Shown: positions 18,450 to 57,623, counted from the first letter of the stretch. The stretch is 64,000 nucleotides of DNA from Rhodospirillales bacterium (GCA_023898805.1 CP060260.1:849656-913655); one strand, 5' to 3'. Numbers and translations are program-made. Notes: generated by a model not told the origin, from the letters alone.

Positions 18450-18491
18450 GGCGTAACGGCCTGTGACTGGACGCCGGAAAACGGCTTTTGA

Positions 18492-19898: not shown

Positions 19899-20265
19899 AT
19901 CACTCTTCAAAACGACCCGAAAGGTCATGCTGGCCTTGCTGCTGACCTTCGGCCTCGCCGCCCCGGCACTGGCCTGCGAATGCGCGGTGGGAATGCCCGA
20001 CCCGGTCACGACCAACCACGCCTATTCGCTGGCCGACGTCACGGTGCGCGGCATGAGCATGGCCAATCACCAAAGCGCGCTGGCGATCGACACGGTGCGC
20101 CGTGGCTTTTTGACCGCGCAATACATCCGCGCGAAATTTTCGACCGGCGATTGCGGCGTCGTTCCGCAGTATCAGCGCAAGATGACCGTGCTGCTCAAGG
20201 CCGAGGACGACGGTTCCTACAGCATTGCGGGCCAGTGCGAAACCCGCGCCGCGCTCGCGCACTGA
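19891..20265 (+). CDS. Small exported protein whose predicted mature N-terminus is Cys-x-Cys (TIMP/NTR-like?)
   Basis: ATG 19891 overlaps the glmU stop (ATGCGTAA). The signal peptide ends ...LAAPALA|CECAVGMPDPVTTNHAYSLADVTVRG. Later Cys residues are available for disulfides. Confidence 0.55.
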   Translation: MRKSLFKTTRKVMLALLLTFGLAAPALACECAVGMPDPVTTNHAYSLADVTVRGMSMANHQSALAIDTVRRGFLTAQYIRAKFSTGDCGVVPQYQRKMTVLLKAEDDGSYSIAGQCETRAALAH

Positions 20266-27983: not shown

Positions 27984-28042
27984 GTAACAGTAAATTGGGT
28001 CGCCGGGGTTGAATTCAAGACACGGCATGCCAATATGGGACC

Positions 28043-38251: not shown

Positions 38252-40881
38252 CCCTGCCGACCGACGACCGCTTCGTCTACCAGACCAACCTGCTGAATAC
38301 GGCGGGCGGCATCGACATCGACGTCGTCCCGGCATGGACCGATTATACCGGCGCGGGCGTCAGCATCGCCTTGATTGACGATGGCTTCGACCTTGCCCAC
38401 CCTGACCTCGCGGGCCGGTTCGACCTTGCGGCCAGTTACGATTTCGCCGGGTCCGACCCGCTGCCGCAGGCGGAAACCGGCGACGACCACGGCACCGCCA
38501 TTGCCGGTATCGCGGCCGCCGCGCGCAACGGCGTGGGCATTGTCGGCGTCGCCTATGACGCGACGCTCGTGGGCCTGCGCGTCAGCTTTACCGCCGACGA
38601 TTCCACCGACCAGTTCACCGCCGCGATGACGCACATGGTGGATAACGACATCGCCAGCAATTCCTGGGGCTATGCCGGGGCCTTTGCCGACAATTACGCC
38701 GATGGGTGGCTGGACGGCCAGCGCGCGGCGATCGAGGACGCCGCCTTCAACGGGCGCGGCGGGTTGGGCACCGTCATCCTGTTCGCCGCCGGAAACGGCG
38801 GCAACAGCGCGGACCGCGTTGATTACCACAGTGTCACCGCCGACCCGCACGTCATCGCTGTGGGCGCGATGACCGCCACCGGCGCCGCCGCGTCTTTCAG
38901 CAACCCCGGCGCGGCACTGCTCGTTTCCGCCCCCGGGCAAAGCATCCCGACCGACGACGTATCCGGCGCGGGCGGCTATTTCCCGGGCGATTACGTCAGC
39001 CTTTCCGGCACCTCCGCCGCGACGCCGGAGGTTTCGGGAATCGTCGCCCTGATGCTGGAGGCGAACCCGAATCTCGGCTACCGCGACGTGCAGGAAATCC
39101 TCGCCTATTCCGCCCGCGCGACCGGCGCGGTCAGCGACTGGCAGACCAACGGCGCAGACAACTGGAACGGCACCGGCCTTCATTTTTCGCACAGCGTCGG
39201 CTTCGGACTGGTCGATGCCCTTGCCGCCGTACGCCTTGCCGAAACATGGACCACGACACATACGGAGGCCAATCTTCGTACCATCGACCAGACGTACACC
39301 GGCCCGGCCGTGCCGATCCCGGACGGAACGGGCCGCATTGATTCAACCATCACAATTTCCGGCGATTTGATTCTCGATCATGTGCAGGTAAGCGTCGACA
39401 TCACCCACGCCGCCGCCGCGCAACTTGACATCGCCTTGATCTCGCCCTCAGGCACGCGCTCGATATTGATGAGCGCGGCGCCCGTGACCGGCGCAATGTC
39501 GGAATTCACCTTTACCACCGTCGCCGACTGGGGCGAGCATGCCACGGGCGTTTGGACGCTGGAGGTCGCGGACCACACCGCCGGCACGGCGGGAATCCTG
39601 AACGGCTGGTCGATTAATCTTCAGGGCGATGCCGCAACCAACAATAATCTATATGTTTATACTGACGAAAACACCAACCCGATTGCGGTAACCGATTCCA
39701 ACGGCGGCACCGACACGATCAACGCGGCCGCGATCTCGCACGCGCTGACGCTCGACCTTGCCGCGCGCACCGGCATCGAAAACCTCGACACCGGCGACGG
39801 CAACGACACGGTATACGGCTCCGCGCTCGACAACGTCATCGACACCGGGCGCGGCAACGACACGATCTACGCTTCGGTGGGTTCGGACACCATCGACGGC
39901 GGCGCGGGAACAGACACGTACATCACCGAATCCGTATTCAACCACAATGTCGCGGTCGATGCGGACGGCACCGTCACCCTGACCAGTCTTGATACCGGCA
40001 TCGCCACCCATCTTTTAAACATCGAAAACTTTGTTTTCGCGGGTGTTTCCTACGACCTGCCCTCTCTGGCCGCCGCCTCGCGCAGCGGCGATCTGGTCGA
40101 CGTCATCTATTTCATCCACGGCGCGGCGGGCATCGCGGGAATGCATTCCGATACGCTTGGCCACACCGCCTACGAGGCCGGAACGCTGGGCGTCGGCGGC
40201 ACCGGCACCGTGCTGCTGGCCGACCGCGAGGGCAACCACCTGACCCTGACCAACAATGCGGGACAGGATCTTTCGGGCCTTTCCATGCGCATGGACGACG
40301 GTCTGGCGGTGACGTTGCACGGATTTATCGAAGTCACCGTAATCGCCGACGGCACCAGCGCGACCAGCGTCGATATCGGCGGCGGACAGCAGGGGTTCAT
40401 CCAGACCGGCGCGGGCGGCGACACGGTCAATTTTCTGGGCTTTCTGATCGACCCGCACATCCCCGCGCAGGATCGCACCCTGACCGCCAACACCAATGAC
40501 GGAAACGACCGCGTCACCGTCACCGATCGTTCGGGTTATATCGCCTATGACATCGACCTTGGTTCGGGCGACGACACGTTCACCGCCATCGGCACGCCCG
40601 GCGGCACGGTCCACGGCGGCGACGGTGCCGATACCTTTGCCTTTGGCGCGGGCGCGCAAAATGCGGTGATCGACGATTTCAACCCGCTGCTCGACCATCT
40701 CGACCTTTCAGCCCTGACCGCCGCGCATCAAGGCGCGATAGACGGTTTCCTGACCCTGACCACCAGCCAGAACGCGACCACGGTATCGGTCGGCGGCACG
40801 AACGTCGCGACGCTTGCGGGCACGGTCCTCGACCAGACCTTGCAGCATTACCTCGACACCGGCGTGGTCATTGTCGATTGA
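38248..40881 (+). CDS. Secreted subtilisin-like (S8) protease with proprotein-convertase P-domain and RTX-type Ca-binding repeats
   Basis: The catalytic triad contexts are IALIDDGFD, DDHGTAIAGIAAA and GTSAATPEVSGIVALM. The P-domain includes GVWTLEVADHTAGTAGILNGWSINLQG. GxGNDT/GGxGxD repeats follow, ending GGDGADTFAFG. There is no N-terminal signal peptide. Confidence 0.85.
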   Translation: MTLPTDDRFVYQTNLLNTAGGIDIDVVPAWTDYTGAGVSIALIDDGFDLAHPDLAGRFDLAASYDFAGSDPLPQAETGDDHGTAIAGIAAAARNGVGIVGVAYDATLVGLRVSFTADDSTDQFTAAMTHMVDNDIASNSWGYAGAFADNYADGWLDGQRAAIEDAAFNGRGGLGTVILFAAGNGGNSADRVDYHSVTADPHVIAVGAMTATGAAASFSNPGAALLVSAPGQSIPTDDVSGAGGYFPGDYVSLSGTSAATPEVSGIVALMLEANPNLGYRDVQEILAYSARATGAVSDWQTNGADNWNGTGLHFSHSVGFGLVDALAAVRLAETWTTTHTEANLRTIDQTYTGPAVPIPDGTGRIDSTITISGDLILDHVQVSVDITHAAAAQLDIALISPSGTRSILMSAAPVTGAMSEFTFTTVADWGEHATGVWTLEVADHTAGTAGILNGWSINLQGDAATNNNLYVYTDENTNPIAVTDSNGGTDTINAAAISHALTLDLAARTGIENLDTGDGNDTVYGSALDNVIDTGRGNDTIYASVGSDTIDGGAGTDTYITESVFNHNVAVDADGTVTLTSLDTGIATHLLNIENFVFAGVSYDLPSLAAASRSGDLVDVIYFIHGAAGIAGMHSDTLGHTAYEAGTLGVGGTGTVLLADREGNHLTLTNNAGQDLSGLSMRMDDGLAVTLHGFIEVTVIADGTSATSVDIGGGQQGFIQTGAGGDTVNFLGFLIDPHIPAQDRTLTANTNDGNDRVTVTDRSGYIAYDIDLGSGDDTFTAIGTPGGTVHGGDGADTFAFGAGAQNAVIDDFNPLLDHLDLSALTAAHQGAIDGFLTLTTSQNATTVSVGGTNVATLAGTVLDQTLQHYLDTGVVIVD

Positions 40882-42302: not shown

Positions 42303-43763
42303 TTACGCGTCCTGCGCCCACTGCGAAAGCAGCCGCACGCCGAACCCCGTGGCTCCGCGCGGGCACAAAGGTGCGTCGGCACGCGCGACCATAACCGGCG
42401 CCATGTCCACATGCGCCCATTTGACGCCTTTTTCGACGAAACGCTGCAAAAACGCCGCGGCGGTGCATGACCCGCCGTAACGCGTTGCCGCCGCGTTTTT
42501 CATGTCCGCGATGTTGGAATCCATAGCCCGGTCGAATGCCTTATCCAGCGGCATGCGCCATACACGGTCGCCGGTCTGGTGCGAAGCCGCCTCCAGCGCG
42601 TCGCGCATCACATCGTCGTTGGAAAACAGGCCCGCGAACTCCTCGCCCAGCGCGACCATCGCGGCCCCGGTCAGGGTCGCAATATCGACCATGGCGCGCG
42701 GCTTGTACGTCTTTTGTACGTGCCACATCGCATCGCACAGCACCAGCCGCCCCTCGGCATCGGTGTTCGTAACCTCGATCGTCTGGCCGGACAGGCTTTT
42801 CAGGATGTCGGAAGGCCTGTACCCGTCGTCCGAGATCATGTTTTCGGCCAGCGCCAGCGCCGCGACCACATGCACCTTGGCGCGCGATGCAGCCAGCGCC
42901 AGCATCGCCCCGGCGACCGCCGCCGCGCCCGCCATGTCGCATTTCATTTCCAGCATCCCGTCGCTGGGTTTGATCGAATACCCGCCCGTGTCGAAGGTGA
43001 TGCCCTTGCCGACCAGCGCTACCGGCGCGCCTTTGACGCCAGCGCCCTTATATTCCATGACCACAAGGCGCGGCTTGTGCGCGCTTGCGCGGCCAACGGC
43101 CAGCATCGCGCCGAACCCTTTTTTCGCCAGCTGCTTTTCGTCCAGAACCGTGACCTTGACGCCCAGCGGCCGCAATTTGCCCACGACCCGCCGCGCAAAA
43201 CTTTCGGGATAGATGACATTGGCCGGTTCGTTGACAAGGTCGCGCGCGAAATGCACCGCCGCCGCGCTCTTGGCCATCGGAGCGTACGCCCGCTGTGCAA
43301 CCGCCCCGGCACCGAATGTGACGCTGTCGGGTAGATGCTGGTCCTTGTTTTTGGTCTGGTAGGCCCGGAATTCATACCCCCGCAGCGCCGCCCCCGATGC
43401 CAGCGCCGCGATCTCGTCGGCCCCGGTTGCCCCGGCCTGCGAAAAATCGACGAAGATATCCCGCACCGGCAATTGCATCGCCGCGCCCAAAATCCTGCCG
43501 CCCGCGATTTCCAGCGCCAGCGCCGTGCGCGCCTTGCGCGGGCCAAGACCGCAAAGCCCGACCCGCCCGGTCTTCGCCCCGGGCACTACCGCGGTGACGA
43601 TCGCGCCGCCCTCGCCCTTGAAATCCGGGTTGGCCTTAAGAATCGCGCGGATCGCCGCCGCGTGCGGGCCGGCGGCCTTGCGTGCCTCCCCCTCGCATAC
43701 CGCGATCAGGTAAAGGTCCGTGTCTTTGGCAGGTTTAGGTGAAAAGCCGATCTTCATATCCAT
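42303..43763 (-). CDS. pepA: Leucyl aminopeptidase (M17)
   Basis: Contains the M17 motifs VGKGITFDTGG and NTDAEGRLVL. Confidence 0.9.
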   Translation of the reverse strand: MDMKIGFSPKPAKDTDLYLIAVCEGEARKAAGPHAAAIRAILKANPDFKGEGGAIVTAVVPGAKTGRVGLCGLGPRKARTALALEIAGGRILGAAMQLPVRDIFVDFSQAGATGADEIAALASGAALRGYEFRAYQTKNKDQHLPDSVTFGAGAVAQRAYAPMAKSAAAVHFARDLVNEPANVIYPESFARRVVGKLRPLGVKVTVLDEKQLAKKGFGAMLAVGRASAHKPRLVVMEYKGAGVKGAPVALVGKGITFDTGGYSIKPSDGMLEMKCDMAGAAAVAGAMLALAASRAKVHVVAALALAENMISDDGYRPSDILKSLSGQTIEVTNTDAEGRLVLCDAMWHVQKTYKPRAMVDIATLTGAAMVALGEEFAGLFSNDDVMRDALEAASHQTGDRVWRMPLDKAFDRAMDSNIADMKNAAATRYGGSCTAAAFLQRFVEKGVKWAHVDMAPVMVARADAPLCPRGATGFGVRLLSQWAQDA

Positions 43764-43818
43764 CCCTCAAGCGTGTATGGTCCCGTGCGAAAGGATATAA
43801 CCCTGACGGGCGGGGTCA

Positions 43819-44988
43819 ATGTTTCAGATTTACGACCGCTATATATTGCGCCAGTTGATGCTTGCGACGCTGATCGTCGCGGGCGGACTGTCCATGATCA
43901 TCCTGCTTACCCAGTCGCTCAAGCTGATCGAACTGGTGTTGGAATCGAACGCCTCGGCCCAATCCTTCCTGATCATGATGGCTCTGTCCCTGCCGCGCTT
44001 TTTTGAATCCGTGCTGCCGGCCGCGGTGCTGATCGCAACTCTGTTCGTCTTTCACCGCCTTGCGATGGACTCGGAACTGGTGGTGCTGCGCGCGGCGGGC
44101 ACGTCCCCCCTGCGGCTGGCCAGACCGGTGTTGACGGGCACAGGCCTGCTCATCGCGGGGTTGCTTGTCCTTTCCCTCTGGGTTTCGCCGATCGGCATTG
44201 CCAAGGTTCAAAACCTGCGTAAGGAAATCCGGGCCCAGTACGCGCACCTGATGTTCCGCGAGGGGATCTTCAACACCGTTGGCCCCAACCTGACCGCCTA
44301 TGTCAACAAGCGCGCGCCCGATGGCCGCCTGGTCGGCCTGATGGTCCATGACACCCGCACGGTGGCGAATGGCGGTCCGGCGGTGACCATCGTCGCGCGA
44401 TCTGGCAACATCGTCACTGAAAAAAAAGGACAAAAGATCATCGTCTACGATGGCTCGCGTCAGGAGCTCAATCCGCGCACCGACAAATTTTCTCGGCTCG
44501 ACTTCTCGCAATATACCCTCGACATGCCAGATGAAACCGGCACCATCGACGAGCGTTGGCGCGAACCCGATGAGCGTACGCTTGGCCAGTTGATCGGCCC
44601 GGTTTCGCTGGCGGATTCCTCGCCCGACGACAGGCTTCAGTTCCGGGCCGAGTTGAACCGCCGCTTTTCTACTCCGGTTTTGATGCTTGCCTTCGCGCTC
44701 ATGAGCGCCACCGCCCTGTTGCTCGGCCCTTTTCGCCGCGGCGGACAGATGCCATTGATCGGCGCCGCCGCCGTGTTCGCGCTGACTTTGCAGGGGGCTT
44801 ATCTAGTCTGCTTTTCGCTGGCCAAGAAAACCTTGCTTGGCTGCGTGTTGATGTACGTCGTGGCGGGCTTGCCGGTGCTGATCGCCCTGTTTTTCCTGAC
44901 CCCGCCCGGAGAACGCATCATCGCGCAAGCCGCGCGGCTTTGGCACCGTCTGCTGCATCATGACCTGCCGCGCCGGAGGGATGTATGA
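43819..44988 (+). CDS. lptF: LPS export ABC permease LptF
   Basis: YjgP/YjgQ family with a typical N-terminus (IYDRYILRQLM). It is paired with lptG. Confidence 0.85.
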   Translation: MFQIYDRYILRQLMLATLIVAGGLSMIILLTQSLKLIELVLESNASAQSFLIMMALSLPRFFESVLPAAVLIATLFVFHRLAMDSELVVLRAAGTSPLRLARPVLTGTGLLIAGLLVLSLWVSPIGIAKVQNLRKEIRAQYAHLMFREGIFNTVGPNLTAYVNKRAPDGRLVGLMVHDTRTVANGGPAVTIVARSGNIVTEKKGQKIIVYDGSRQELNPRTDKFSRLDFSQYTLDMPDETGTIDERWREPDERTLGQLIGPVSLADSSPDDRLQFRAELNRRFSTPVLMLAFALMSATALLLGPFRRGGQMPLIGAAAVFALTLQGAYLVCFSLAKKTLLGCVLMYVVAGLPVLIALFFLTPPGERIIAQAARLWHRLLHHDLPRRRDV

Positions 44989-46088
44989 AGATTCTGGGCA
45001 CCAACCGCCTGCTTTCACGCTACCTGACGATGATCTTTTTGCGCATGTTCGCGCTGATGCTCGGCGGGTTGCTGGCGATCGTCTATCTTTTCGACACGCT
45101 TGAACTGCTGCGTCGCGCCGATGGGCGCGGCGATGTCGGCCTCGGCCTGCTGATGAAGATGGGCCTTTATAAATTGCCGGAAGTCGGCCAGATGCTGCTG
45201 CCCTTCGCGATATTGTTCGCGGCGATGGCATCGTTCTGGTGGCTTGCCCGCAGGCATGAGCTGACCGCCATGCGCGCGGCAGGATATTCGGCATGGCAGT
45301 TCGTGGCCCCCCTGGTGACCGCGGCGATGGCGATCGGGTTCATCCACATCATGCTGATCCACCCGCTGACCGCCCGCGCGATCCAGCATTATCAAGGCCT
45401 TGAAGCCGAGTATCTGGGCCAGCACCGTAAACTGGTCACCGTTTCGCAACAGGGTCTGTGGTTGCGCGAGGCGGATTCAGGCGGCGAGGTTATCATTCAC
45501 GCCGACAGCGTGGCCTTGGGCGACTGGACGCTCAAAGGCGTAACGGCGCTGTTTTACGACGAAGTGGGCGACTTCACCCGCCGCCTTGACGCGCAATCGG
45601 CCCTCCTCCAGCCCGGTCGCTGGGTCTTCCACAACGCCACGATCCGCGAAACGGGCACTCCTGCCCAGTTCTACCCAGCCTATACATTGGCCACCGAACT
45701 GACTCTGGCGGACATTCAGGAAAGCTTTTCCGACCCCGACACCATCTCGTTCTGGCAATTGCCGGCCTTCATTCACACACTTAAGGACACCGGCCTAGAA
45801 ACCGCGCCAATGGAGGTTTATTACCAATCCCTGCTGGCCCAGCCGTTGTTGCTGGCCGCGATGATCCTGCTGGCCGCCACCGTCTCGTTGCGCCCGCCAC
45901 GTTTCCAGCGCGCCTTGTTCATGGTCCTAACCGGCATGACGTCGGGGTTCGTCGTTTTTTTCATGTCGTCATTCCTGCGCGCATTGGGCGGTTCGCACCA
46001 GCTTCCGGTCGTGCTGGCGGCATGGTCGACGGGGGTGATCGTCCTGCTAGGTTCCGTAACATGGCTCCTGAATACGGAAGACGGGTAA
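44985..46088 (+). CDS. lptG: LPS export ABC permease LptG
   Basis: YjgP/YjgQ family. Its start overlaps the lptF stop. Confidence 0.85.
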   Translation: MKILGTNRLLSRYLTMIFLRMFALMLGGLLAIVYLFDTLELLRRADGRGDVGLGLLMKMGLYKLPEVGQMLLPFAILFAAMASFWWLARRHELTAMRAAGYSAWQFVAPLVTAAMAIGFIHIMLIHPLTARAIQHYQGLEAEYLGQHRKLVTVSQQGLWLREADSGGEVIIHADSVALGDWTLKGVTALFYDEVGDFTRRLDAQSALLQPGRWVFHNATIRETGTPAQFYPAYTLATELTLADIQESFSDPDTISFWQLPAFIHTLKDTGLETAPMEVYYQSLLAQPLLLAAMILLAATVSLRPPRFQRALFMVLTGMTSGFVVFFMSSFLRALGGSHQLPVVLAAWSTGVIVLLGSVTWLLNTEDG

Positions 46089-46156
46089 AAACCATGGAAT
46101 GCGTCGACATCCCCCGTTGACGCACCTTGTGGAATTGTTAATCTGAAGCTGGATCA

Positions 46157-46195
46157 TTTTAAGGGCCTGTTAAGGCCCTTTCTGTAATTTTTATA
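46157..46195 (+). terminator. Probable terminator after lptG
   Basis: aagggcc-tgttaa-ggccctt forms a 7-bp stem followed by tctgtaattttt. Confidence 0.5.
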
Positions 46196-46233
46196 CGGAA
46201 TATGAATTCCGTAACCACTTGGGGGAATCAACC

Positions 46234-46995
46234 ATGAATACCAAAACCGCACGCGCCCGGCTGGCCAAGATCGCTTTCACCGGCACTGCCGCGCTGCTGC
46301 TTGCGGCCTGTGCGTCGATGCCGCACCCCGCCACCGCCGACCCATCCGCGGTCAGCGACCCGCTGGAACCGGTCAACCGCGTCACGATGTCTTTCAACCG
46401 CGTGCTCGACAAGGTGGTCTTTAATCCACTCGACACCGTTTACCGCACGCTGGTGCCGCAAATCGGCCGCGATGCCGTGCACAACGTGCTTGCCAACCTT
46501 AAAAGCCCGGTTTACCTCGCGAACGAGCTGCTGCAGGGCGACTTGAAAGGCGCCGGCACCGTGGTTCAGCGCTTTATGATCAACACCTTCGTCGGCGGTG
46601 GCGGCCTTGTGGACGTCGCGGCCAAGACCGGCATGCCCGGCGAACCGGAAGATTTTGGACAAACCCTCGCCGTATGGGGCGTTGGCAACGGTCCTTATAT
46701 CGTCTGGCCGATTCTCGGGCCCTCGACGCTGCGCGACTCGGCCGGCTTCGTTGGCGACATCGCGATGGACCCGATCTACTGGTACGCTCGCAACACCGAT
46801 AAACCGGGCCTGCAATGGACTCGTGCCGGCCTGACGCTGGTTGACGCCAAGGACCGCACCCGCGACGTGATGGACGATGTCTATCGCAATTCCGGTGACC
46901 CTTACGCGGTGCTGAAAAGCATTTATATCCAGCGTCGAAACGCGATGATCGACAAATCGGGTTCGAAAAGCGCGCCGTTGCCGACGATCGAATGA
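46234..46995 (+). CDS. mlaA: MlaA/VacJ-family outer-membrane lipoprotein
   Basis: Has a lipobox (LLLAACAS) and VacJ motifs (DPLEPVNR, GWGVGNGPYIVWPILGPSTLRD). Confidence 0.85.
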   Translation: MNTKTARARLAKIAFTGTAALLLAACASMPHPATADPSAVSDPLEPVNRVTMSFNRVLDKVVFNPLDTVYRTLVPQIGRDAVHNVLANLKSPVYLANELLQGDLKGAGTVVQRFMINTFVGGGGLVDVAAKTGMPGEPEDFGQTLAVWGVGNGPYIVWPILGPSTLRDSAGFVGDIAMDPIYWYARNTDKPGLQWTRAGLTLVDAKDRTRDVMDDVYRNSGDPYAVLKSIYIQRRNAMIDKSGSKSAPLPTIE

Positions 46996-47190
46996 CGGCG
47001 ACATAAGGCGGCGGGCATAACTTACGGGGAATCCGCCCCGTAATGTGACGCCCCGTAATGTGTGACCCTTTGCCGCTTGATCGCTGCCACGATTGCCTTA
47101 TAAATGACCGTACTGTTCATAGGGCCGCCCTAAAGCGGCCCTAATGACGTGTTGCGATAGGATTGCCGAACCAAAGACTGGACGACACCG

Positions 47191-47901
47191 ATGAAAACGC
47201 CCGTGATAAAAATACAAGCACGCCTGCCCATGCGACTGCTCACGCTGGTCTTGCCGTTCCTGGCCGCCGCCGCAACGGTTTCTCTGCCCGCGGCATCGTC
47301 CGTGGCTGCACCGCTTTTTGTCCCGGCCCAGGGCCTTCACGTCCAGCCGGTGGCCCAAGACCCCGGCGCGGCGGCGCAGGCCTTGATCCAGAAACTGGGC
47401 GACACCGCGACCAGCGCCCTGTCGGACCAATCGTTGAACGATACCGGCCGCATGTCCTTGTTCCGCAAGATTCTGGCCGCGCATTTCGATACGCCGCTGG
47501 TCGCCCGTTTTGCTGCCGGACGCTACTGGCGCGCCGCGACCCCGCAGCAACAAAGCGAGTACGTCAAACTTTATCAACAGATGATTCTCAACGTCTATTC
47601 GGCGCGGTTCAAAAACTACTCCGGCCAGAAATTCACGGTCACCGGTGACCGGGCGGACGGCGCGTCCGGCGACATCATCGTTACCTCGCAAGTCACAGGC
47701 AAGGGCAGCCCGATCACGGTTGACTGGCGCGTACGCAATACCGGCGGCGCCGACAAGATCATCGACGTGATGGTGGAAGGGGTCAGCATGGCGATCACCC
47801 AACGCAATGACTTCGCAAGCGTGATCCAGCAAGGCGGCGGCCAATTTACGGCGCTGATCGACTATCTGCGCGACGGCGGCACCAGCGACGTTAAGGATTG
47901 A
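47191..47901 (+). CDS. MlaC/Ttg2D-family periplasmic phospholipid-binding protein
   Basis: Has a signal peptide and the Ttg2D-like motif LVARFAAGRYWRAATPQQQSEYVKLYQQMILNVYSARF. Confidence 0.75.
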   Translation: MKTPVIKIQARLPMRLLTLVLPFLAAAATVSLPAASSVAAPLFVPAQGLHVQPVAQDPGAAAQALIQKLGDTATSALSDQSLNDTGRMSLFRKILAAHFDTPLVARFAAGRYWRAATPQQQSEYVKLYQQMILNVYSARFKNYSGQKFTVTGDRADGASGDIIVTSQVTGKGSPITVDWRVRNTGGADKIIDVMVEGVSMAITQRNDFASVIQQGGGQFTALIDYLRDGGTSDVKD

Positions 47902-48057
47902 TCCGCCTTCACCGCTCCAAAATCCGGTTTTGTTAAGCTTTTTGAAGCGAAAAACTTGCGTTTTTAAGGCGTTTTGCCTATATAATTTTACCATTCCATA
48001 TTAGGAAAACTTTAAGCGCCAACATGTATAACAAAAAGGCGTAGCAAGGGGTGTGAA

Positions 48058-50394
48058 ATGGCTGATTTAAGCGCAATGGATCTGGACAACGCCGAACAGG
48101 TGGCCGAACCGGTGGCGACAGCCGCAACGGGCGCTTCCGGGGACGATTCTATCATGTCGCCGGAAACTGAAGCGGCGGTCGGCGAAATGTTCGCCGCACT
48201 TCGCAGTCAACATGAAAAACTGGCCGTCGACAGGAAACTGGCCGATGCGTTTGAAAAGCGCTTCACCGAAAACGGGGGCTGGCGCTCGATCACCGACGGC
48301 GCCGCCGAAAATCCGGAAGCCGCCCGCAAATTCGCCGAATTCTACGCCGCCCGCGCCCGCAGCGAATACGAGGCGCAACCGAAAAAACGCGCGTTTGATG
48401 CGTATGCCCTGACCAAAAACGGCGTAAACGCGAGCCTTTTGAACGCCGCCTTCGACCCGGCGCAGCGCCGCGGCAAGGCCTATGCCGCCTTTGCCGAATT
48501 CAAAACCGCCAATCCCGAACTTTTTGCGGCTGCGGACGCCGCTGCGCCCGCGCTGAAAGGCGAACCCAGTAAAAAATACGTCGAACCCAAAGATCGCCTG
48601 ATCGACGGCTATACCGAACATTTCACCGCCCACTGGAACGCGATGACCGGCGAGGAAACCGCCGACCCCGCCCGCGTGCGCGATTTCGCCCGTTACTACG
48701 CGGAACAGATTGTTCAAGACTATGACAGATACGACCGAAAATTACCCGGCACCAAAAGCTTCTACGACCATGCACTGGCCGAAGACGGCGTAAAACCGGA
48801 AATCCTGAACCGCGCCTTCAATCCGGAAACGGGCAAGGGCGCCGCCATCAAACAATACGAAGCCTTCAAGGCCACGCCCACCGCGCCGGCCGCCGCAAGC
48901 GAAATCGAGGAAGCGGCCGCCACGCTCGAAAATCCGGACGCGGCTGACGACCAGCCCGCTAACAAGAGCAAGAACGCCGACACACTGGAAGCAGACCAAA
49001 ATCCGGACGCCGACAGCGTGGAAAAACCCGATGCACAGGCCGCCAAAGCCGAAGAAAACACCCCGGCACAAGACCCGGCGCAGAATGATGAGGGGGCGGA
49101 TTCCCACCTTGCCGGTCTTGCGATGGAGCCATTCCGCGAAAACAAGGCTGGCAACTTGCTGTTTCAACCCTTCCTCGCTTATCCGCGCATCGGCGATCGA
49201 CCGGATGTGGCCATGGCGGGATCGGATTGGCAGGCTCTTAGCCCGCATACGGCCCGTTTGATCGCGCAATATTACGGTGGCATCGATCAGGACGCCGCGT
49301 TTCTTGCCGCGCTTGACGAACTTGCCGAACAACTGCCCCCGGAAAAGCTGGCCGATGGCGAAAACCCGGAAACGGATCCGGATAAAATCCGCGACCGGAG
49401 ACGCGCGCGCCTGCTTGAGCAGGAAACACTCGGAATCCCCGGCCCCGATGGAAAAATAGCCAGAATGAACGGGCAGGACGCGATTTTCGCCCTGTTCATG
49501 CGCCATTCCGCGCTCGCCGGTCATTTCGATGCCACTCAATACGGCCGCCCCAACGCACCTGAATACGGCGGCATTCATCGAAAAATCCTGGATGGGCCGC
49601 CAATACAACAGCGTGGTTCACGGTGCATGGGACGATCAGCAGACCCACGGCGCGGATTTGTGTTTCCGCGACAGTCAAAAACCGTCTACCGTGTTTCCGG
49701 CAAGGGCGTTCAGGCCAAATTACCGCCGGGTCGCAGATTCAACGGGTCCACAGCGCTGCATCTGGCTGGGATCGGCATCAACCTGCGTCTCGACAACGCA
49801 CCGCGCGGCGGTGGCACGCCTGATCTGAAATTCTGTATCACCCTGCCCAAGACCTTACTGCCGGCCGAATACCAATACCGCCGCGATCTGATTTTGCTCA
49901 GCACGCTGCACGAGGCCAGAAAGGCGCAGATCGACCCCGTTCTTTCGGAAAAAACCCGCATGGGCGCCCGCAAGGACATCACGCATATCAATTTCAACGA
50001 CCTCTCTGAAAAGGCCGTAAGGGAGTTGCAGGGCTTGGGCGTCAAGGTCTCCGATCTGGTCGATGCCTTCAACGCGGGCAATTTGAACGGCAAACCCGAT
50101 GCGGCGCTGGAAAACGTTGAAAGCCCCGCGCCGCAACAAGCCGCCGCTGTAAAACCGGAAACGGCTGCGGCAACACAGGAATCTCCCAAGCCGACCGCAA
50201 AGGATATTCTGGCCGGTGGCCATTCGAAATTGCAGTGCCGAAAGCCGCACCTTCGGCAACACCGCTGGGCGAAACGGCCCAAGGACCGGTCGAAGCACCT
50301 CAGGTGCCCCCGCTGCCGTCATCACCGAGGCGCAAAAACGCCGGAAACCCGCACCAACAGTACGTCCTTCATAACCGATCATCACGGCCATTAA
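48058..50394 (+). CDS. Large acidic repeat-containing hypothetical protein (possible secretion substrate; reading frame may be disrupted)
   Basis: AAGGGG lies upstream of the ATG and there is no signal peptide. It has two tandem homologous segments of about 70 aa and a D/E/P/A-rich linker. Local frame anomalies occur near 49.56-49.70 kb and at the C-terminus (see findings). Confidence 0.55.
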   Translation: MADLSAMDLDNAEQVAEPVATAATGASGDDSIMSPETEAAVGEMFAALRSQHEKLAVDRKLADAFEKRFTENGGWRSITDGAAENPEAARKFAEFYAARARSEYEAQPKKRAFDAYALTKNGVNASLLNAAFDPAQRRGKAYAAFAEFKTANPELFAAADAAAPALKGEPSKKYVEPKDRLIDGYTEHFTAHWNAMTGEETADPARVRDFARYYAEQIVQDYDRYDRKLPGTKSFYDHALAEDGVKPEILNRAFNPETGKGAAIKQYEAFKATPTAPAAASEIEEAAATLENPDAADDQPANKSKNADTLEADQNPDADSVEKPDAQAAKAEENTPAQDPAQNDEGADSHLAGLAMEPFRENKAGNLLFQPFLAYPRIGDRPDVAMAGSDWQALSPHTARLIAQYYGGIDQDAAFLAALDELAEQLPPEKLADGENPETDPDKIRDRRRARLLEQETLGIPGPDGKIARMNGQDAIFALFMRHSALAGHFDATQYGRPNAPEYGGIHRKILDGPPIQQRGSRCMGRSADPRRGFVFPRQSKTVYRVSGKGVQAKLPPGRRFNGSTALHLAGIGINLRLDNAPRGGGTPDLKFCITLPKTLLPAEYQYRRDLILLSTLHEARKAQIDPVLSEKTRMGARKDITHINFNDLSEKAVRELQGLGVKVSDLVDAFNAGNLNGKPDAALENVESPAPQQAAAVKPETAAATQESPKPTAKDILAGGHSKLQCRKPHLRQHRWAKRPKDRSKHLRCPRCRHHRGAKTPETRTNSTSFITDHHGH

Positions 50395-50424
50395 AAAACC
50401 GCGCTTTATGGCGCGGTTTTTTTA
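50393..50424. terminator. Bidirectional rho-independent terminator between convergent genes
   Basis: aaaaa-accgcgc-tttatg-gcgcggt-ttttttt. A perfect 7-bp stem is flanked by an A-run and a T-run. Confidence 0.8.
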
Positions 50425-50442
50425 TGTAGTTTTCCGACTGGT

Positions 50443-53317
50443 TTACGTCATACCACCAGAAGAAGGCGCGTTTACATCGCCATGGAGTCTTCTAATTTCG
50501 TTTTCCTTCTCCTTGATATCCCTACGCCTTGCATTAGTGGCCCTGAAATTCTTTTCCGTACCCTCAAGCGCGCTATGCCCCTGAGTCATGACCGCATAAC
50601 CGGCCAAGGCCATGCCCTGCATATTGCCGATATCGACCGGCCGGTCGCCTGTGAAGGACGACCCGCCGCCCAGCCAGCGCAGCATCTTGTCCGGAATCGC
50701 ATCGATCAGCTTAAAACAGGAATTGGCCAACATATAGACCAGATAAACGAACAACACGGTATAGGTAATAATCCCAAACCCGCTGACATTTCTGATATCC
50801 AATCCGCAAGGCGCATTTCCGGTCCCAGGAAGCGTACATGTAGCATCCGGGTTATAGGCGAATATCGCATATTTGAAGGTCGCGGCTAGAAAATTCACCC
50901 CGGCATTGAACACCAAAGTCCCCACGATCAACCCCATGATGATCAAAAGCGGACGCAACAAAACACCAAACAGCGTCAACCAGTTGGCAAAGGCCGTCTG
51001 GCCCGGCAGCCCTCGCCGTCGATCCGTAAATGCGAAAGCGCGAACAGGGGCATCGACACAACGGCCTCTGCCACTTCGATCACCCAGTTGACGGCCGAGA
51101 AAAAGAAATACATGAACGGCATCATCGGCAGCAGGTAAAACAGGACGATGCCAACCGCTAATCCAACCGTAATGATAAACCACAGCACAGGCGCAACTGC
51201 ATCCAATATTGCACCGATAAAGTTGAGTGCTTTGACAAGCTTACCCGCCCTGGAATCGCACCGAAAAATCTGTCTATGAAATTACTGCCTGCTTTGGCCG
51301 CTATATAATATTTAATCATGGATCCGGCATGCGAAAGAATGCTGCCACCCGCATCAATCAAACGGCTCATGGGGTCGTTTCCGGATGTCGTCGCGCTTGC
51401 CGCGGACTTGTTATCGACAAGTTCCAGAAAACCATCGCCAAACTGCCAGCGCGCCAACCAGAGAATAGGATCAGTAATACTTGCGCCTCTCGAACTGAAG
51501 TCCTGATTATAGGCTGGCGCCGCGCCCAAGGCGTTCGTCGGCTGTGTGGTAATATAGCTCGGCACCTTCGAAATCACGACCTCGGCATTGGCAAGGGCGG
51601 TCCGCGCAGCAGCATCTTGATCCGTATTGGTCGGCCCCCCACACCCGGTAGTTGCAAGGAATCGTCCCAATGCGATACCAGCACCGATGGTTTTGATTTG
51701 CCATCCGGCCCAGTAACGGGAGCGGGAACCGCATTGCTGACCGCATCAAGAACCGCCTGGGTCATACGCGCGGTCTGAATGTAGTAAATTCCCGCCGTTC
51801 CCCAACCGCGTGTCTTGGCGTCGTTCTGCATCGACGTGACCTGGGTCGTCGCCGACATCATGGCGGTCCGTATATTCGCAGGCACGCTGTTCATACTCGT
51901 TTGTGCCGCATTGATGGCGTTAGCGACCTGCTGTGCAAGAGCAGAAGCCTGAACATTGCTTGCGCGGAATAATCCGTACCCGATGGGGCCCACGGCACGG
52001 TTTTTCAGAAATTTTGGTGGACGGATCTTTAAATGCATCGGCCATCTGCTTCATCGCGGTAAGATAGGTTACCTGCGCCTGTTGCACGGTATTAGCCGCA
52101 TTAGTCATGTCCGTATTTGTTGCATCGCTGCTGCCTGTATCACCCTTGATCGACATTTCGATCGAACCGCAAGTGCTGTTGGCTGGCGACGGGCCTTTGC
52201 CAGAGGGCAGCGGAAGATCGACAGCCGACCAGACATAGGTGATTTTCGCGGCACCGGCATCGCGTCCAAACTTGATATCGGCATCTGTAAACGTCGCTAG
52301 CTGCGAGGTTTTTCCATTATCGACCAGAATGGTCACCACGTCCGTACCGCTTGCCGGGAAAACATCGGTGGGGCTGTTCCAGTGCCCAGCGCGGTTATAC
52401 GCGGCACGACAGGTTTCAAACATGAATATGCCGGTGCCAAGTGTCGACGCGGTCGGTGCCCCGACATTGCCCGCGACCGGCGTCGGCGCGTTGAACGCTT
52501 CCGTATATTTAACCCAAGCATTGGTCGCAAGGCCCGATCCGAATTTCGCGATATACATGGTCATGTATTGCCCGGCGTTGAGCCCGTCGCCCAACGGCAC
52601 CAGAAGCCCAAGCGCCAGCACCAGCCGGATCGGCGCCCACAACCCGTTGAAGCGTTTGCCGAAGGGCTGCCCGGTCTGCGCCGATTCCCCGACCACCGTG
52701 ATCACGTAATACAGGACCACGATCACCGCGATGATCATCATCGCCGTGCTGTAAAACCCTAAAATGGCATGGAACCCGGGCTGCGTGATTGTTGCCACGC
52801 CCGAACCAAAAATATCGCTGACGCCGAACACGCTGCGCAGGAATTCAAAAATAATATCGGTATTGGGATTGGGCGTGCTAAAAAACGTGCCGCTGGGCGT
52901 ACCGGCCGCGTGCGCGGCAGAGCCGAACGCGGCATACAGCACGATCAAAATGGTCTGCAGCACGATCATCGCCATCGCCACCAGCACCGCGCCGAAGATC
53001 AGGATCTGGTCAATATTCTCGCGCTTCACCACCAGCCCGTTCGCAGCGGTGGCGATCACATCGCGCACGCCGAACCGGCCGATATTGGCGGGGTTGAGCA
53101 TCGGATGCCCGGCAGGCAACAGCCGCGCCGAACGATAGACGAGCGCGAGCACATAGGCGAAATGCCCGAATTTTTGACCCAGCGCGCGAATGCGCGGAAA
53201 AATTTCCGGCATATGCGTATACCGGAACAAGGCACCCTTATCGACATGAGGCATATGCGCGGTATTTTTATCCGCGTGATTATCCGACTTGAACAACCCG
53301 AAAAGGGCCATGCACAC
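50443..53317 (-). pseudogene. dotA: DotA/TraY-family type IVB secretion membrane protein, fragmented by multiple frameshifts
   Basis: Five consecutive minus-strand ORFs in different frames tile one protein of about 950 aa: 51920-53317, 51574-52038, 51158-51670, 50976-51206 and 50443-51183. It carries a DotA/TraY-like core (GESAQTGQPFGKRFNGLWAPIRLVLALGLLVPL) and polytopic C-terminal segments. Confidence 0.7.
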
Positions 53318-53495
53318 ACCCCGTCTTGTCAGCGCACAGCGGCATTGGTGCCGCAGGCGGGACTTCCCCGCCTATTATTATTTAAAATTTTACCTAATTT
53401 TAGGTTAACGCGCCACAGGAATCTGTACCGTAAAACGACATAAAATCGTTGCGAATCTGGTACTTGCGACCATTATAAACAAGTTGGAACGGCTT

Positions 53496-54845
53496 TTACT
53501 GTGCCAGCCGCCCCTGCGTGCCCTGCACGACCCAGCGCCCACCGATACTGGCGATTCCAGTAACCTGACCCAGCCCAGGCACATCGTCGCCGACGCCAAC
53601 CTCGCGCATATCGCCGCCGCGCGCCAGCACGGCATGGCCGGGGCGCGCACCGCGCAGCGACCAGCCACCGCTGCCGCCCGACGAATTGCCGCCCGTCGAA
53701 ACCGGTTGCGCACGCCTTGCGGGGCTATAGGGACGGTCCCAGCTGGATACGGAACTGGACGTCGAAGTCGCCCTTGGCTTGGTTTTTTTGCTGCTGCCCG
53801 AAGCGGCGCTGCGCTTTTTCGGGGCCGCGGATGCCGCAGACGCCATCACGTCGGAATCATTGCTGCGCGCTGCCACGGCGCGAGGACGCGATTGAGAAAG
53901 ATCGTCGATGCGTGTTTCCAGCCGCTCCAGTGTCGTCTGGATGGCGCTCAGCTTGCTGTCGTCGGCGGGGGCGGCGGCGGCGATTTTGTCCATCGCATCG
54001 GTCAGCTTGGAATCCATCTGGTCAAGCCGCGTCTCGATCGCGTTGACCCGTCCGGCCAATGCCGTCGTATCTCCCGCACTCGCCCCTCCGGCGCCTGTAT
54101 CCTCAAGCGCGGGCGCGGCAGCGGTTTGGATCTGCGGCTGTGCCGTATCCGGCGCTGGCAACTGCGTCGGAGTAACCGAGGTCTGCGACACCGTTTGCGG
54201 CTGGTTCGGAAACTGCCCGACCACCGATCCCGGCTGTGGCGTCGCGATCGGCGCGGGCATCGGCACCGCGCCGGCATTGTCGTCCGCACCTTGCGTTGGC
54301 TGGGCTACGATCTTGGCGAACGGGTCGTCAGCGGCGGTTTGAGCATTGGCGGCGGTCTGCGGCGCGTTGCCGGTATTGCCAAGCGCCGCGTAATTATCTG
54401 GATTATCAAGAAGCCCGGCCCCCTGCGCGGCGTTTTGCGTGCCTGCGGGCGCGATGGCTTCCTGCGCTGCGGCGGCGCTGTCGGCCGTGTTGGCGCCCGA
54501 AGCCTCCTGCACCGTGGGGGCGGGCGCGTTGCCAGCCATGATCTGCGGTAAAACCTTGGAGGCGATCAATCCACCTGCCACCAGAACCATGGCCCCGACA
54601 ACGCCGATATTGAACCAGTTGGTTTTTTTGGCAGGTAAGGGCGCGGGCTCCCCCTCGCCGAACACATCGGCATCCAGTTCGTCCGACACGTCGTGAAAAT
54701 CCGCGTCATCGATCGAATCCGCACCCGGATCCATCCCGTGCGCGGCCTCCTCCGGCGCTTCGTCATAGACGTCGAAATCTTCGAGTTCGTCACCATGGTG
54801 GCCGTCTTGATGCATGTCGGGATCGTTGATCTGGTTCATAAACAT
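53496..54845 (-). CDS. dotF: DotF/IcmG (TraP)-like type IVB secretion protein
   Basis: Has an acidic N-terminus, one TM (WFNIGVVGAMVLVAGGLIA), a Q/A/P-rich linker and a coiled coil. The C-terminal domain WSLRGARPGHAVLARGGDMREVGVGDDVPGLGQVTGI resembles the DotF C-terminus as I recall it. Confidence 0.6.
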   Translation of the reverse strand: MFMNQINDPDMHQDGHHGDELEDFDVYDEAPEEAAHGMDPGADSIDDADFHDVSDELDADVFGEGEPAPLPAKKTNWFNIGVVGAMVLVAGGLIASKVLPQIMAGNAPAPTVQEASGANTADSAAAAQEAIAPAGTQNAAQGAGLLDNPDNYAALGNTGNAPQTAANAQTAADDPFAKIVAQPTQGADDNAGAVPMPAPIATPQPGSVVGQFPNQPQTVSQTSVTPTQLPAPDTAQPQIQTAAAPALEDTGAGGASAGDTTALAGRVNAIETRLDQMDSKLTDAMDKIAAAAPADDSKLSAIQTTLERLETRIDDLSQSRPRAVAARSNDSDVMASAASAAPKKRSAASGSSKKTKPRATSTSSSVSSWDRPYSPARRAQPVSTGGNSSGGSGGWSLRGARPGHAVLARGGDMREVGVGDDVPGLGQVTGIASIGGRWVVQGTQGRLAQ

Positions 54846-54941
54846 ACGCCTAACAGGGCGGGCCGACGCGTTCAATGGTTTTTACCGTTCCGCGCGCGGT
54901 TATGCGCGCGAAGAACATGTCGAACGGGTTATTGCCCCATC

Positions 54942-56291
54942 TTATTGCCCCGAATCCTTGACCACGGGCTCAAGGAACAAAACACCGATCGGCGTACCGG
55001 CATTGACCTTGATCATCACCTTGGTCCTGTTTCCTTCGTTATCCAGTTCTTCCGAAAGTTTCGAGGTGCCGGCGGCCAACCCGGCAGCCACTTGCTCGCG
55101 CGTGTTCAGCTTGGGCTGCGACACCGTCGTCGTATCCGCCGTCACCACCACGGTCTGCTCATTCTGGGCGATGGCGTTGCCCATGCCTTCGATGAACCGG
55201 GCCGCAGCGGGCAAAAGCACGCGCCGCCAGTAACGCCGGTCGACTTCGCTGGCCAACGCCGGCAACGTGGTTTTCGGATCAATCGCGACCGCATTGACGG
55301 ATTGCGAGATGCCGTTGACCACGACGGTATTGAAATCGAGGATCAGATAATCCTCCGTATCCTTGAAGGAGCCAAGAATCCGCGCACCGGCCAAAGGCCC
55401 GCTGGACAGCCGCGCAAGCACCGGCCCCGGCGCATCCGTATTGGCCTCGGTCAGCGTCTGGGCATAAACGATTGTACCTGCCGGAATCAGGATTTCCTTG
55501 ACCACCGGCGCATTCTGGGCCGTGCTGGCACCGCCCGTACTTGAAGACGCCTTCTGTGCCTTCTGCTCAAGGTAATCAGCGGACGTAACCTGCATGATCT
55601 GCGGCGGCAGGATTTTGTGCTTGTCCAGGATCTGCTGCATCTGCTGGGTCATCGCGTTGGCCAGCGCATCGACCGCCTGCGGATCCGGCCCCGACGGCAT
55701 CACCTGCTGCTGCGCACCGTTGCCGCCCTGCCCGTTGCCACCCACCAATTGCGGCGAGGTGGGTTCAAGCGTGGGATCAGGCCCGGATTGCTGCGACCCC
55801 GACCGCCACCCGGCCAACGGATCGTCCATCGACGCCGGTGGCGTACCGGACCCGTCCTGAAGCGAATTATCTGTATTGTCCGACACCGGGATCGGCATGG
55901 TGCTTTGCCCGGTCTGCACTGCCTGATCCAGACGTTGCTGGTTGACCTCGTTGATTGCGTCGCGATAGGCCTCGGTCGTGTCGTTGCCCGGCGCCTCGTG
56001 CTCCTTCAGCGCTGTGCCCACGCGCGACTGGTCGTCTTGCTTGCCGCCCATGCCGAAAATCACGAAGGCCGCGACCACCGCGACGACACCGACCCCGATG
56101 ACGCCCAGCTTGATGATCGGGTTGTTGCGCCACATTTCGCCCAGCGTCCCGCCCTTCTGGCCATGTCCAGGCGCGTCGAATTCGTTGAAGCCGTCATCGC
56201 CGGACGAAAGGTCTTCCTCGTGGCTGAAATCGTCGTGCGAAGGCTCCTGCGGAACCCCTGCTTCAGGATCAAAGGTAACGTTGTCTGTCAT
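54942..56291 (-). CDS. dotG: DotG/IcmE (TraO)-like protein with VirB10/TrbI-type C-terminal domain
   Basis: Has an N-terminal TM (IIKLGVIGVGVVAVVAAFVIF). The C-terminus is TrbI-like (ILIPAGTIVYAQTLTEANTDAPGPVLARLSSGPLAGARILG ... VNAGTPIGVLF). Its ATG overlaps the dotH stop. Confidence 0.75.
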   Translation of the reverse strand: MTDNVTFDPEAGVPQEPSHDDFSHEEDLSSGDDGFNEFDAPGHGQKGGTLGEMWRNNPIIKLGVIGVGVVAVVAAFVIFGMGGKQDDQSRVGTALKEHEAPGNDTTEAYRDAINEVNQQRLDQAVQTGQSTMPIPVSDNTDNSLQDGSGTPPASMDDPLAGWRSGSQQSGPDPTLEPTSPQLVGGNGQGGNGAQQQVMPSGPDPQAVDALANAMTQQMQQILDKHKILPPQIMQVTSADYLEQKAQKASSSTGGASTAQNAPVVKEILIPAGTIVYAQTLTEANTDAPGPVLARLSSGPLAGARILGSFKDTEDYLILDFNTVVVNGISQSVNAVAIDPKTTLPALASEVDRRYWRRVLLPAAARFIEGMGNAIAQNEQTVVVTADTTTVSQPKLNTREQVAAGLAAGTSKLSEELDNEGNRTKVMIKVNAGTPIGVLFLEPVVKDSGQ

Positions 56292-57475
56292 TGTGCTGCC
56301 TTGTTTTCCTCGACCTGCGCACGCACCAGCTTGCCGTGATCCGAAAGCAGGAGCACCGGTGAATTGTTGACCACATAAACCGTCATGCCGTCTGCGGACT
56401 TGACCGATGCGCTCCAGCCCGGCGACAGAAGCGTCAAAGGCGTGCGCAGATACGTCGTCCCGTTCGACCGGAAGACCGATGTCCGCCCGTCGACGCCGTT
56501 GACCGTCAGTTTTTCGGTGCCACCCGGCGGCACCCCGTCAAGAATCTGGGTCAGCGCCTTGTCCGACCCAGCCTCGATGGTAAGGCCCGGATCGATGATC
56601 GGCGGCGTGGCGTTGGGACCGTATTCGGGGATACGGGCGTCGAAGCGGTACTGCACGACGTCAAGCTGGGTCTCCAGCGTAAATGTGACCGGGGTTTTCA
56701 AACCGACCAACTGCACCGACATGTTGCCGACCTCGGCCGCGCCCATCGGCGAAACACGGATCAGATGCCCCCCGTCGCCCGGCGAGATGACCTCGAAATT
56801 TCCACCCCAGCTGACGTCCTGCACCGGCCAAGGCTGACCGGTGATATCCATCATGGTGATCGACGTGACGTGACCGGGGCTCAGCTTGATGACCGGCGGC
56901 GTGACGCCGGGATCAAGGGAAACGGTCTGTACCGTGACCTCAGGCTTGGGCATGCCGCCGATCCGGGATTCCGACACATCGCGCGTAACCTTGTATTTGT
57001 CCAGCAGCGCGCGGATCTGGTCCGGCGTCATCGGCATCATACCGTTGAGCGCAGCATCGAAGGCTTGCTCGCGCGCCTTTTGTTCAAGTTCGGCGCGCTT
57101 CGCCTCGACATCCTCGGCGCTCAGCGTATTCAGGTTGTAATACTGGTCCGCGGGCTGGTCCGCGCCCGGCTGCTGGAATCCGCCCGGCGTCGGGGCCGGC
57201 GTGGCATTGGCGGACGCGGGCGCCTCGGCCTGCTGGGCACGGCGGAATTCGGCCAACGGGTCCTGCACATCGGTGGGCGGCGCATCGCTGCTGGGCGGCA
57301 GGATCGCGGATCCCGTGGCGTCCGGAGCATTGGCCGCCGGTGACGCGGCGGCAGGCGTCTTTGCATCCGAAGATGCGACGGGAGAGGCGGCAACAGGAGC
57401 GGCGTCCTGCGCCGACGCAGGCCCGGCGACAACAGACAAAAAACCGAAAAGGAGTACCGGCAAAAGCCGTTTCAT
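56288..57475 (-). CDS. dotH: DotH/IcmK (TraN)-like outer-membrane core component
   Basis: The start was set at the signal peptide MKRLLPVLLFGFLSVVAGPASA. The C-terminal region is IcmK-like (SPGHVTSITMMDITGQPWPVQDVSWGGNFEV ... LLSPGW). Confidence 0.8.
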   Translation of the reverse strand: MKRLLPVLLFGFLSVVAGPASAQDAAPVAASPVASSDAKTPAAASPAANAPDATGSAILPPSSDAPPTDVQDPLAEFRRAQQAEAPASANATPAPTPGGFQQPGADQPADQYYNLNTLSAEDVEAKRAELEQKAREQAFDAALNGMMPMTPDQIRALLDKYKVTRDVSESRIGGMPKPEVTVQTVSLDPGVTPPVIKLSPGHVTSITMMDITGQPWPVQDVSWGGNFEVISPGDGGHLIRVSPMGAAEVGNMSVQLVGLKTPVTFTLETQLDVVQYRFDARIPEYGPNATPPIIDPGLTIEAGSDKALTQILDGVPPGGTEKLTVNGVDGRTSVFRSNGTTYLRTPLTLLSPGWSASVKSADGMTVYVVNNSPVLLLSDHGKLVRAQVEENKAAQ

Positions 57476-57623
57476 GACACGCACACCGCCACCATAATAA
57501 GAGTCGCCCGATTTTTCGTGGGCTTTTTCTAAATTATCACCAGAAGACAACGCGGTTTTGGCGCGGCTGTCAAGAATTCCGGAAAACATCTCTCCCGCGC
57601 CCCTCGCGTTTTGAGTCACGCTT

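Follow-up and report, generated by a model that had tools for sequence, protein, structure and literature searches.

A mis-assembled patch very likely explains the broken frames of a fast-evolving acidic protein gene and its dotA neighbour in a Rhodospirillales metagenome assembly

The window analysed here is a stretch of 64,000 nucleotides (CP060260.1:849656-913655) from a 1.94-Mb contig of a metagenome-assembled genome titled 'Rhodospirillales bacterium'. The subject is a gene that starts at 48058 on the plus strand, here called X. Its annotated open reading frame (ORF) runs from 48058 to 50394 and encodes 778 amino acids, identical to NCBI protein H6866_04495 (P0001 below). X lies in a chromosomal block with the order AnmK, S8 peptidase, HolC, PepA, LptF, LptG, MlaA, MlaC, X. 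Convergent on it are DotA, a protein in the DotF position, DotG (TrbI), DotH, DotI, YkuD and Icd. Between X and the DotA/TraY-family gene (50443-53317, minus strand) lies a bidirectional intrinsic terminator at 50393-50422, which has a 13-bp stem with an A tract on one side and a T tract on the other.

A preliminary description of this stretch, made from the sequence, had presented X as a large acidic protein with an internal duplication, converging on dotA, a candidate secretion substrate and itself possibly frame-damaged. The convergence on dotA is confirmed. An intact orthologue of the neighbouring gene scores 263.5 bits against TIGR04346, where the cutoff is 100, which places it in the DotA/TraY family. 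Against NF033886 it scores 207.5 bits with a cutoff of 500, so it is a family member and not an equivalog of the Legionella-type DotA.

Among 5.8 billion proteins, close relatives of X form two clusters only, P0002 (771 amino acids) and P0003 (797 amino acids). Alignment to both shows that the annotated ORF leaves the orthologue frame at 49574-49676, and again from 50226. In the first of these stretches the orthologue reading is found in frame +1, where the translation is FIEKSWMGRQYNSVVHGAWDDQQTHGADLCFRDSQK, exactly as in P0002. Third-position GC content (GC3) over 49565-49695 is 29/43 in frame +1 and 19/43 in the annotated frame 0. Further on, the correct frame is +2 starting at 50226 and +1 starting at 50307, up to a TAA stop at 50372-50374. 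The final 56 codons of the annotation are read in the wrong frame, and the annotated ORF overruns to 50394. After repair of four one-base frame breaks, the true extent of gene X is 48058-50374 (plus strand). With four one-base edits in the gene and two in the intergenic region, the result is a protein of 772 amino acids, 761 of which are identical to P0002.

At the level of the sequence, these frame anomalies are far beyond chance. The proposal of a compensated pair of frameshifts near 49.57 and 49.68 kb is thus upheld, both by GC3 and by the exact match to P0002, and the suspected out-of-frame C-terminal codons are there as well. In the orthologues, on the other hand, the frame is conserved end to end, a finding that runs against the preliminary description of X. 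The breaks are present at the predicted places; what does not stand is that they are biological damage, as they come with a patch of foreign haplotype that differs by indels only.

The patch becomes visible when the window is compared with DNA from seven assemblies, taken from NCBI, ENA and Logan. Three loci surround P0002 (L001-L003) and four surround P0003 (L004-L007). Against L004, the window has zero differences from 42995 to 49573, with a single mismatch further back to 38058, and again zero differences from 52392 to 60371. In the stretch from 49574 to about 52400, nucleotide divergence from the L004 type is 20-45%, and the window matches the L001 type. The window therefore holds L001-type sequence inside an L004-type genome, at 49574-52400, where the right end is approximate.

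Compared with L001, L002 and L003, the patch has zero substitutions over about 2.8 kb, and ten single-base indels. Nine are deletions (49677, 50226, 50307, 50393, 51010, 51248, 51635, 51963 and 52001) and one is an insertion (50382). At all ten positions the three loci agree with each other against the window. Seven of the ten leave single-base runs of 3-6 in the window that are one base longer in the L001 type: A5/A6, C4/C5, A6/A7, C3/C4 (twice), C5/C6 and T5/T6.

The left junction, 49573|49574, reads GGCGGCA|TTCATC. The two haplotypes share no homology there, and the join adds one base and is out of frame. It also adjoins a 21-nt length difference between the haplotypes. This junction is the first frame break of X. 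The second is the deletion at 49677, which restores the frame.

The same patch runs on into dotA. Five of its one-base deletions split that gene into four ORF calls on the minus strand (50443-51183, 51158-51670, 51574-52038 and 51920-53317). Wherever a related assembly contains dotA in full, the gene is unbroken and encodes 915-957 amino acids, so its earlier characterisation as part of a secretion-system remnant was mistaken. X and dotA are both intact in seven independent assemblies (L001-L007). The frameshifted protein P0001 is recorded from one contig only, while in NCBI, ENA and Logan the intact forms come from 4 and 6 contigs.

The frame damage in X and the remnant-like look of dotA are very likely assembly artefacts, and X itself would be an intact gene under selection. 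An indel-only spectrum, a foreign-haplotype patch and a non-homologous junction together point to uncorrected long-read consensus, and not to gene decay. In the proposed course of events, the assembly would have moved from its own haplotype (the L004 type) to that of a co-occurring strain (the L001 type) between 49574 and about 52400. This L001-type stretch would then have escaped short-read correction, which would be expected to fail where the two strains diverge across the patch. The outcome would be an out-of-frame join plus ten errors of one base each, most of which make a short homopolymer one base too short. Together they would break X and dotA at the same time.

Such a history fits the probable source of the data. 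The HK-STAS genomes were made from Nanopore reads of 86.7% accuracy, by way of a Flye draft, haplotype sorting, Illumina correction and bin-by-bin hybrid assembly (PMC8518188). The L001 locus belongs to JACKIY, with locus tag H6865, the window carries H6866, and the nearby accessions JACKIP and JACKJB are titled HK-STAS-PROT. The window genome, which is Micavibrio-like, is very probably one of these Nanopore and Illumina hybrid assemblies.

Some points weigh against the artefact call. It is drawn from comparative sequence and not from reads, the HK-STAS origin of the window follows from locus-tag adjacency and not from its own record, and three of the ten indels lie outside single-base runs of 3 or more.

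The alternative is genuine pseudogenisation, in which the frameshifts are real in this strain and the secretion cluster is decaying. The breaks do exist in the deposited sequence, four in X and five in dotA, which are adjacent genes. Yet ten indels without any substitution over 2.8 kb are not the mutational spectrum of decaying genes, and the damage stops precisely where the sequence taken from another strain stops; the left edge of that sequence is a non-homologous, out-of-frame join. The flanking genes for the DotF-position protein, DotG, DotH and DotI are identical to those of the intact L004, and the broken allele is seen in one hybrid assembly only, with the frames of L001-L003 and L004-L007 intact. 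Real decay is on this evidence very unlikely. Programmed frameshifting and phase variation were dropped, as the indels extend over two genes and the intergenic terminator and coincide with the foreign-haplotype patch.

Spurious pseudogenes are a familiar kind of error in long-read and hybrid metagenome assemblies. The present case resembles them in having indels only, mostly in single-base runs, with an intact allele in short-read assemblies. Unlike them, it also involves a change of haplotype at a non-homologous junction, which goes beyond unpolished sequence. To describe the locus as an effector with a damaged frame, next to a secretion system in decay, would mislead if, as appears, both 'pseudogenes' come from one mis-assembled patch. 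For pseudogene counts in this genome, or for calls on the integrity of its type IVB secretion system (T4BSS), 49574-52400 should be masked.

Underneath the artefact there is natural variation. The L001 and L004 alleles have flanks that are more than 99.5% identical, around an island that measures about 3.2 kb (about 49535-52800 in the window) and in which nucleotide identity is 53-95%, mostly 53-77%. On the X side the island takes in the C-terminal domain and the tail; it then crosses the terminator and, in DotA, covers everything from about residue 200 to the C-terminus. It starts at about residue 493 of X, the edge of the C-terminal domain. Within it, DotA residues about 700-900 form a more conserved core.

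Synonymous divergence (dS) in the island is saturated, at 0.8 to above 2. The ratio of nonsynonymous to synonymous divergence (dN/dS) is 0.18-0.38 for X read in the orthologue frame, and 0.15-0.38 over most of dotA. Judging by these ratios X is under purifying selection, and with dS saturated and dN/dS low, both alleles of X and dotA must be functional. The island was imported from a distant relative and did not arise by local diversification. In Legionella, dotA is a recombination hotspot (PMC6761968). The two cases share a sharp intragenic dotA mosaic between near-identical strains, with purifying selection maintained. They differ in that the tract described here extends into the convergent gene X, whose C-terminal domain is replaced as well, and in that the host is an alphaproteobacterial predator.

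As for the protein, natural X is soluble, strongly acidic and 771-797 amino acids long, and the window ORF has a net charge of -25, so the earlier label of a large acidic protein is accurate. Its N-terminal helical module consists of two repeat units, at 48226-48528 (residues about 57-157) and 48574-48879 (residues about 173-274), with limits taken from a two-unit profile. The units are homologous, with 30% identity over 94 amino acids (E=2e-13). No DNA-level tandem repeat was found under this duplication, which must therefore be old. An acidic linker follows at 48883-49107 (residues about 276-350), rich in Ala, Asp, Glu and Pro, with a net charge of -16 and predicted to be disordered. The duplication followed by an acidic linker was thus correctly recognised in the preliminary description.

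Next comes a conserved C-terminal region, at 49225-50085 (residues about 390-676), with a YYGG motif and an alpha/beta domain that carries the motifs FRDS..Y..G, RRDL..LS.LHE and G(I/V).V..L...N. The last part, at 50086-50371, is a Pro/Ala-rich tail that in the window is spread over three frames and ends in the basic, proline-rich peptide ...QKRRKPAPTVRPS. A search of X for a signal peptide or membrane segment found neither. The N-terminus is acidic and no 19-residue window is hydrophobic enough; across the family the maximum 19-residue hydropathy is 0.8-1.8, and the top value belongs to an Ala/Val-rich stretch.

When 1.84 billion representative proteins were searched with a profile, six more relatives came up, P0004-P0009, at E-values from 2e-24 to 2e-8 and 22-27% identity. 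In that set the X family thus comprises eight sequence clusters, with lengths from 439 to 993 amino acids. The distant homologues match X only in the C-terminal region (residues about 390-676). The relatives keep the start codon and the overall architecture: a single N-terminal helical unit, a linker that is acidic and rich in Pro and Ala, a YYGGY(E/D)xDxxF motif and the alpha/beta domain. The single unit is detected in P0005 and P0008 at E-values of about 5e-6, and is duplicated only in the present lineage. Invariant residues of the domain are F535, D537, Y543, G547, F560, R576, D609, G635, G660 and N671. All relatives are acidic (net charge -13 to -36), and none has a signal peptide or membrane segment. 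Their tails are basic and proline-rich, for example QKRRKPAPTVRPS and PPRTRPTLRKRPGPALKV, and a short basic peptide at the C-terminus is kept throughout the family. Other homologue searches with the family alignments, in which the word index was saturated, returned only the three close proteins, or nothing. An RTX-repeat protein, P0010, matched at E=3e-5 and was judged a spurious low-complexity match.

No significant match to X was found in Pfam, NCBIfam, PDB sequences and profiles, or by Foldseek against PDB and BFVD. AlphaFold, given eight sequences, predicts most of residues 500-675 with a local confidence score (pLDDT) of 78-90 and the remainder with low scores. With two sequences the pLDDT is 34, which is uninformative. 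Weak matches to the nuclease folds RuvC, Rai1/DXO and Sen34 were dropped, given poor TM-scores and only two invariant Asp residues, an incomplete catalytic set. Sensitive homology searching and structure prediction, which had been suggested at the outset, have thus supplied the six distant relatives but no known family or fold.

All eight family members sit in Micavibrio-like genomes in the arrangement mlaC -> X -> <- dotA, in the same chromosomal block. X identity across the block is 25-29%, against 47-79% for its neighbours, which makes it the fastest-evolving gene there, at about twice the neighbours' rate. X represents an uncharacterised family, unassigned to any fold, with a fixed place beside the 3' end of dotA in a single branch of the Micavibrio-like predators. 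The suggestion that it might be element-borne cargo fails: the location is chromosomal, and synteny extends across genomes in which X is only 25-29% identical. A search near the X locus for boundaries of a mobile element (integrase, tRNA, repeats) found none, and the flanks are housekeeping genes that are syntenic across the clade.

The Dot/Icm-type cluster itself, made up of DotI, DotH, DotG, the DotF-position protein and DotA, is found at 50443-58453 in the window. Micavibrio-like genomes (loci L015-L070) carry it on the chromosome, always between ykuD/icd and mlaC/mlaA/lptGF. A scan based on DotA, with one genome per species, gave 56 loci, mostly titled Micavibrio. Twenty loci that reach mlaC lack X; they carry dotA in tandem arrays of 3-4 paralogues (two on one truncated contig), and with one exception the array directly abuts mlaC. 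X is present only in the branch with 1-2 dotA copies. The tandem paralogues, of which most Micavibrio-like genomes have three or four (loci L019-L070; for example L047:2581-13876 and L035:4230-15614), are about 900-950 amino acids long. Their mutual identity is only 41-56%, so the array must be old. We know of no described Dot/Icm system with multiple tandem dotA genes.

The 2011 genome paper on M. aeruginosavorus reported no type IV secretion system (PMC3189940). A search for papers that link Micavibrio to T4BSS genes found none in the searchable literature.

It is plausible that X works with the Dot/Icm-like machinery next door, either as a transported substrate or as a cytoplasmic partner of DotA. 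This is suggested by its presence only at the 3' end of dotA, the missing export signal, a rate about double that of its neighbours and its variable length. A further hint is that its C-terminal domain and the variable part of DotA are exchanged together, within a single recombination tract. If X is indeed tied to the Dot/Icm-like genes, it would be the first handle on that machinery in a bacterium that feeds on bacteria.

There are also points against such a role. Only five T4BSS-type genes are found in the window, the remainder of which holds no others and is housekeeping. X shares a strand with lptFG-mlaA-mlaC, and its co-transfer with dotA may need no explanation beyond their being neighbours. 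As to the function of X, searches gave neither homology nor a fold match (the best Foldseek match has E=0.03).

One possible, if tentative, role is that of a translocated substrate, an effector that the predator delivers into prey cells through the Dot/Icm-like system. Such a protein would be expected to lack a Sec or Tat signal and a membrane anchor, and X, with its acidic N-terminus, has neither. It is acidic and modular with disordered linkers, restricted to one lineage, variable in length, the fastest-evolving gene of its block and always next to dotA. Its GC3 is 0.66, compared with about 0.77-0.82 in neighbouring housekeeping genes. Several of these traits are shared with Dot/Icm substrates of Legionella and Coxiella, which likewise have no Sec signal, combine modules with disordered regions, are restricted to certain lineages, evolve fast and may be encoded next to a T4BSS gene.

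The C-terminus, however, is different. The Legionella-type signal consists of small polar residues and a Glu-rich block placed about 10-17 residues before the end. The last 30 residues of X are basic and proline-rich, and the tails of the family have no such block, although a divergent system may use another signal. Profile and fold searches detected no toxin or enzyme domain, and no eukaryote-like one, and there is no adjacent immunity-like gene. The dN/dS of X speaks of constraint, not of an arms race. The host of X also preys on bacteria, and translocation is a putative property, a candidate one only.

It is slightly less likely, and on balance improbable, that X has nothing to do with secretion, and is a clade-specific cytoplasmic protein that ended up by chance between the mla/lpt envelope genes and dotA. 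Its strand is that of lptF-lptG-mlaA-mlaC, a conserved element of its own lies upstream and is found nowhere near dot genes, and the bidirectional terminator isolates it from dotA. Against this, the 20 related loci without X do keep the mla/lpt genes, which means that X is not needed for them. Nor does X resemble housekeeping proteins in architecture or in rate of evolution.

The third role, a cytoplasmic DotA partner such as a gatekeeper, adaptor or specificity factor, is the more doubtful one. Here the C-terminal domain of X would contact the variable part of DotA, so that the two have to be exchanged together. The island covers exactly these parts, X is confined to loci whose dotA array has shrunk to 1-2 copies, and the conserved short basic peptide at the C-terminus looks like a docking motif. 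Yet the island stands for one recombination event between two alleles, for which adjacency is explanation enough. The link with dotA copy number is confounded by phylogeny, as all X-bearing genomes form one clade. In Legionella, moreover, dotA recombines as a hotspot without any such partner (PMC6761968).

A known pair offers some comparison. On the IncI plasmid R64, a variable segment of TraY sets partner specificity towards ExcA, and the excA gene adjoins the 3' end of traY. ExcA is a small membrane protein encoded in the same orientation as TraY, and it acts in recipient cells. X similarly adjoins the 3' end of a DotA/TraY homologue. It is, however, a soluble protein of 770 amino acids, convergent with dotA and without sequence similarity to ExcA.

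Put together, Micavibrio-like epibiotic predators might carry a chromosomal Dot/Icm-like machine, with X as its clade-specific client or DotA-cognate specificity partner. X would then be swapped with the variable DotA as an allelic cassette that tunes interactions with prey or kin. As a whole this broader picture is speculative, and unlikely to hold in every part.

The region between mlaC and X (47902-48057, plus strand) measures 156 bp and is AT-rich, with about 49% GC compared with about 60% locally. It holds a conserved non-coding block and the Shine-Dalgarno sequence AAGGGG (48046-48051). The initial remarks on a good Shine-Dalgarno sequence, an AT-rich upstream region and the lack of a signal peptide were therefore all sound. 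A motif, TTAGGRAAACNTTAA, is found at 48001-15; it occurs only upstream of X, in 14 of the X-bearing loci. It is not present in the X-bearing L012-L014, L017 and L072, nor in any other fetched locus.

The wider non-coding block, TATTAGGGAAAC.TTAAGCGC......TGTATAAAG, is at 47985-48057 in the window, at L008:9880-9990 and at L009:9905-10005. Across the subclade it is conserved better than the X protein, and no further copy of it is seen in the window or among the fetched loci. Rfam has no match for this leader upstream of X, and consensus folding gives a weak hairpin only, nothing convincing. It is speculation that the AGGGA motif and the GG-rich Shine-Dalgarno sequence resemble CsrA-type sites.

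Elsewhere in the window, about 39 kb from X, the stretch 7717-9033 holds a gene with a serine-recombinase domain next to a tRNA-Gln (8959-9033). These are the only recombinase and the only tRNA found in the window, and the pair may be a small integrated element. Three large ORFs have no Pfam match: 17697-20015 and 25758-28145 on the minus strand, and 33356-35113 on the plus strand, with 772, 795 and 585 amino acids. Their GC3 of 0.65-0.67 is like that of X and unlike that of the housekeeping genes. No paralogy between X and the other large unannotated ORFs of the window was found. The S8 peptidase (38248-40881, plus strand, 877 amino acids) has a P-proprotein domain and RTX calcium-binding repeats. 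It is part of the same syntenic block in most related loci examined, and it fits the arsenal of secreted hydrolases described for Micavibrio.

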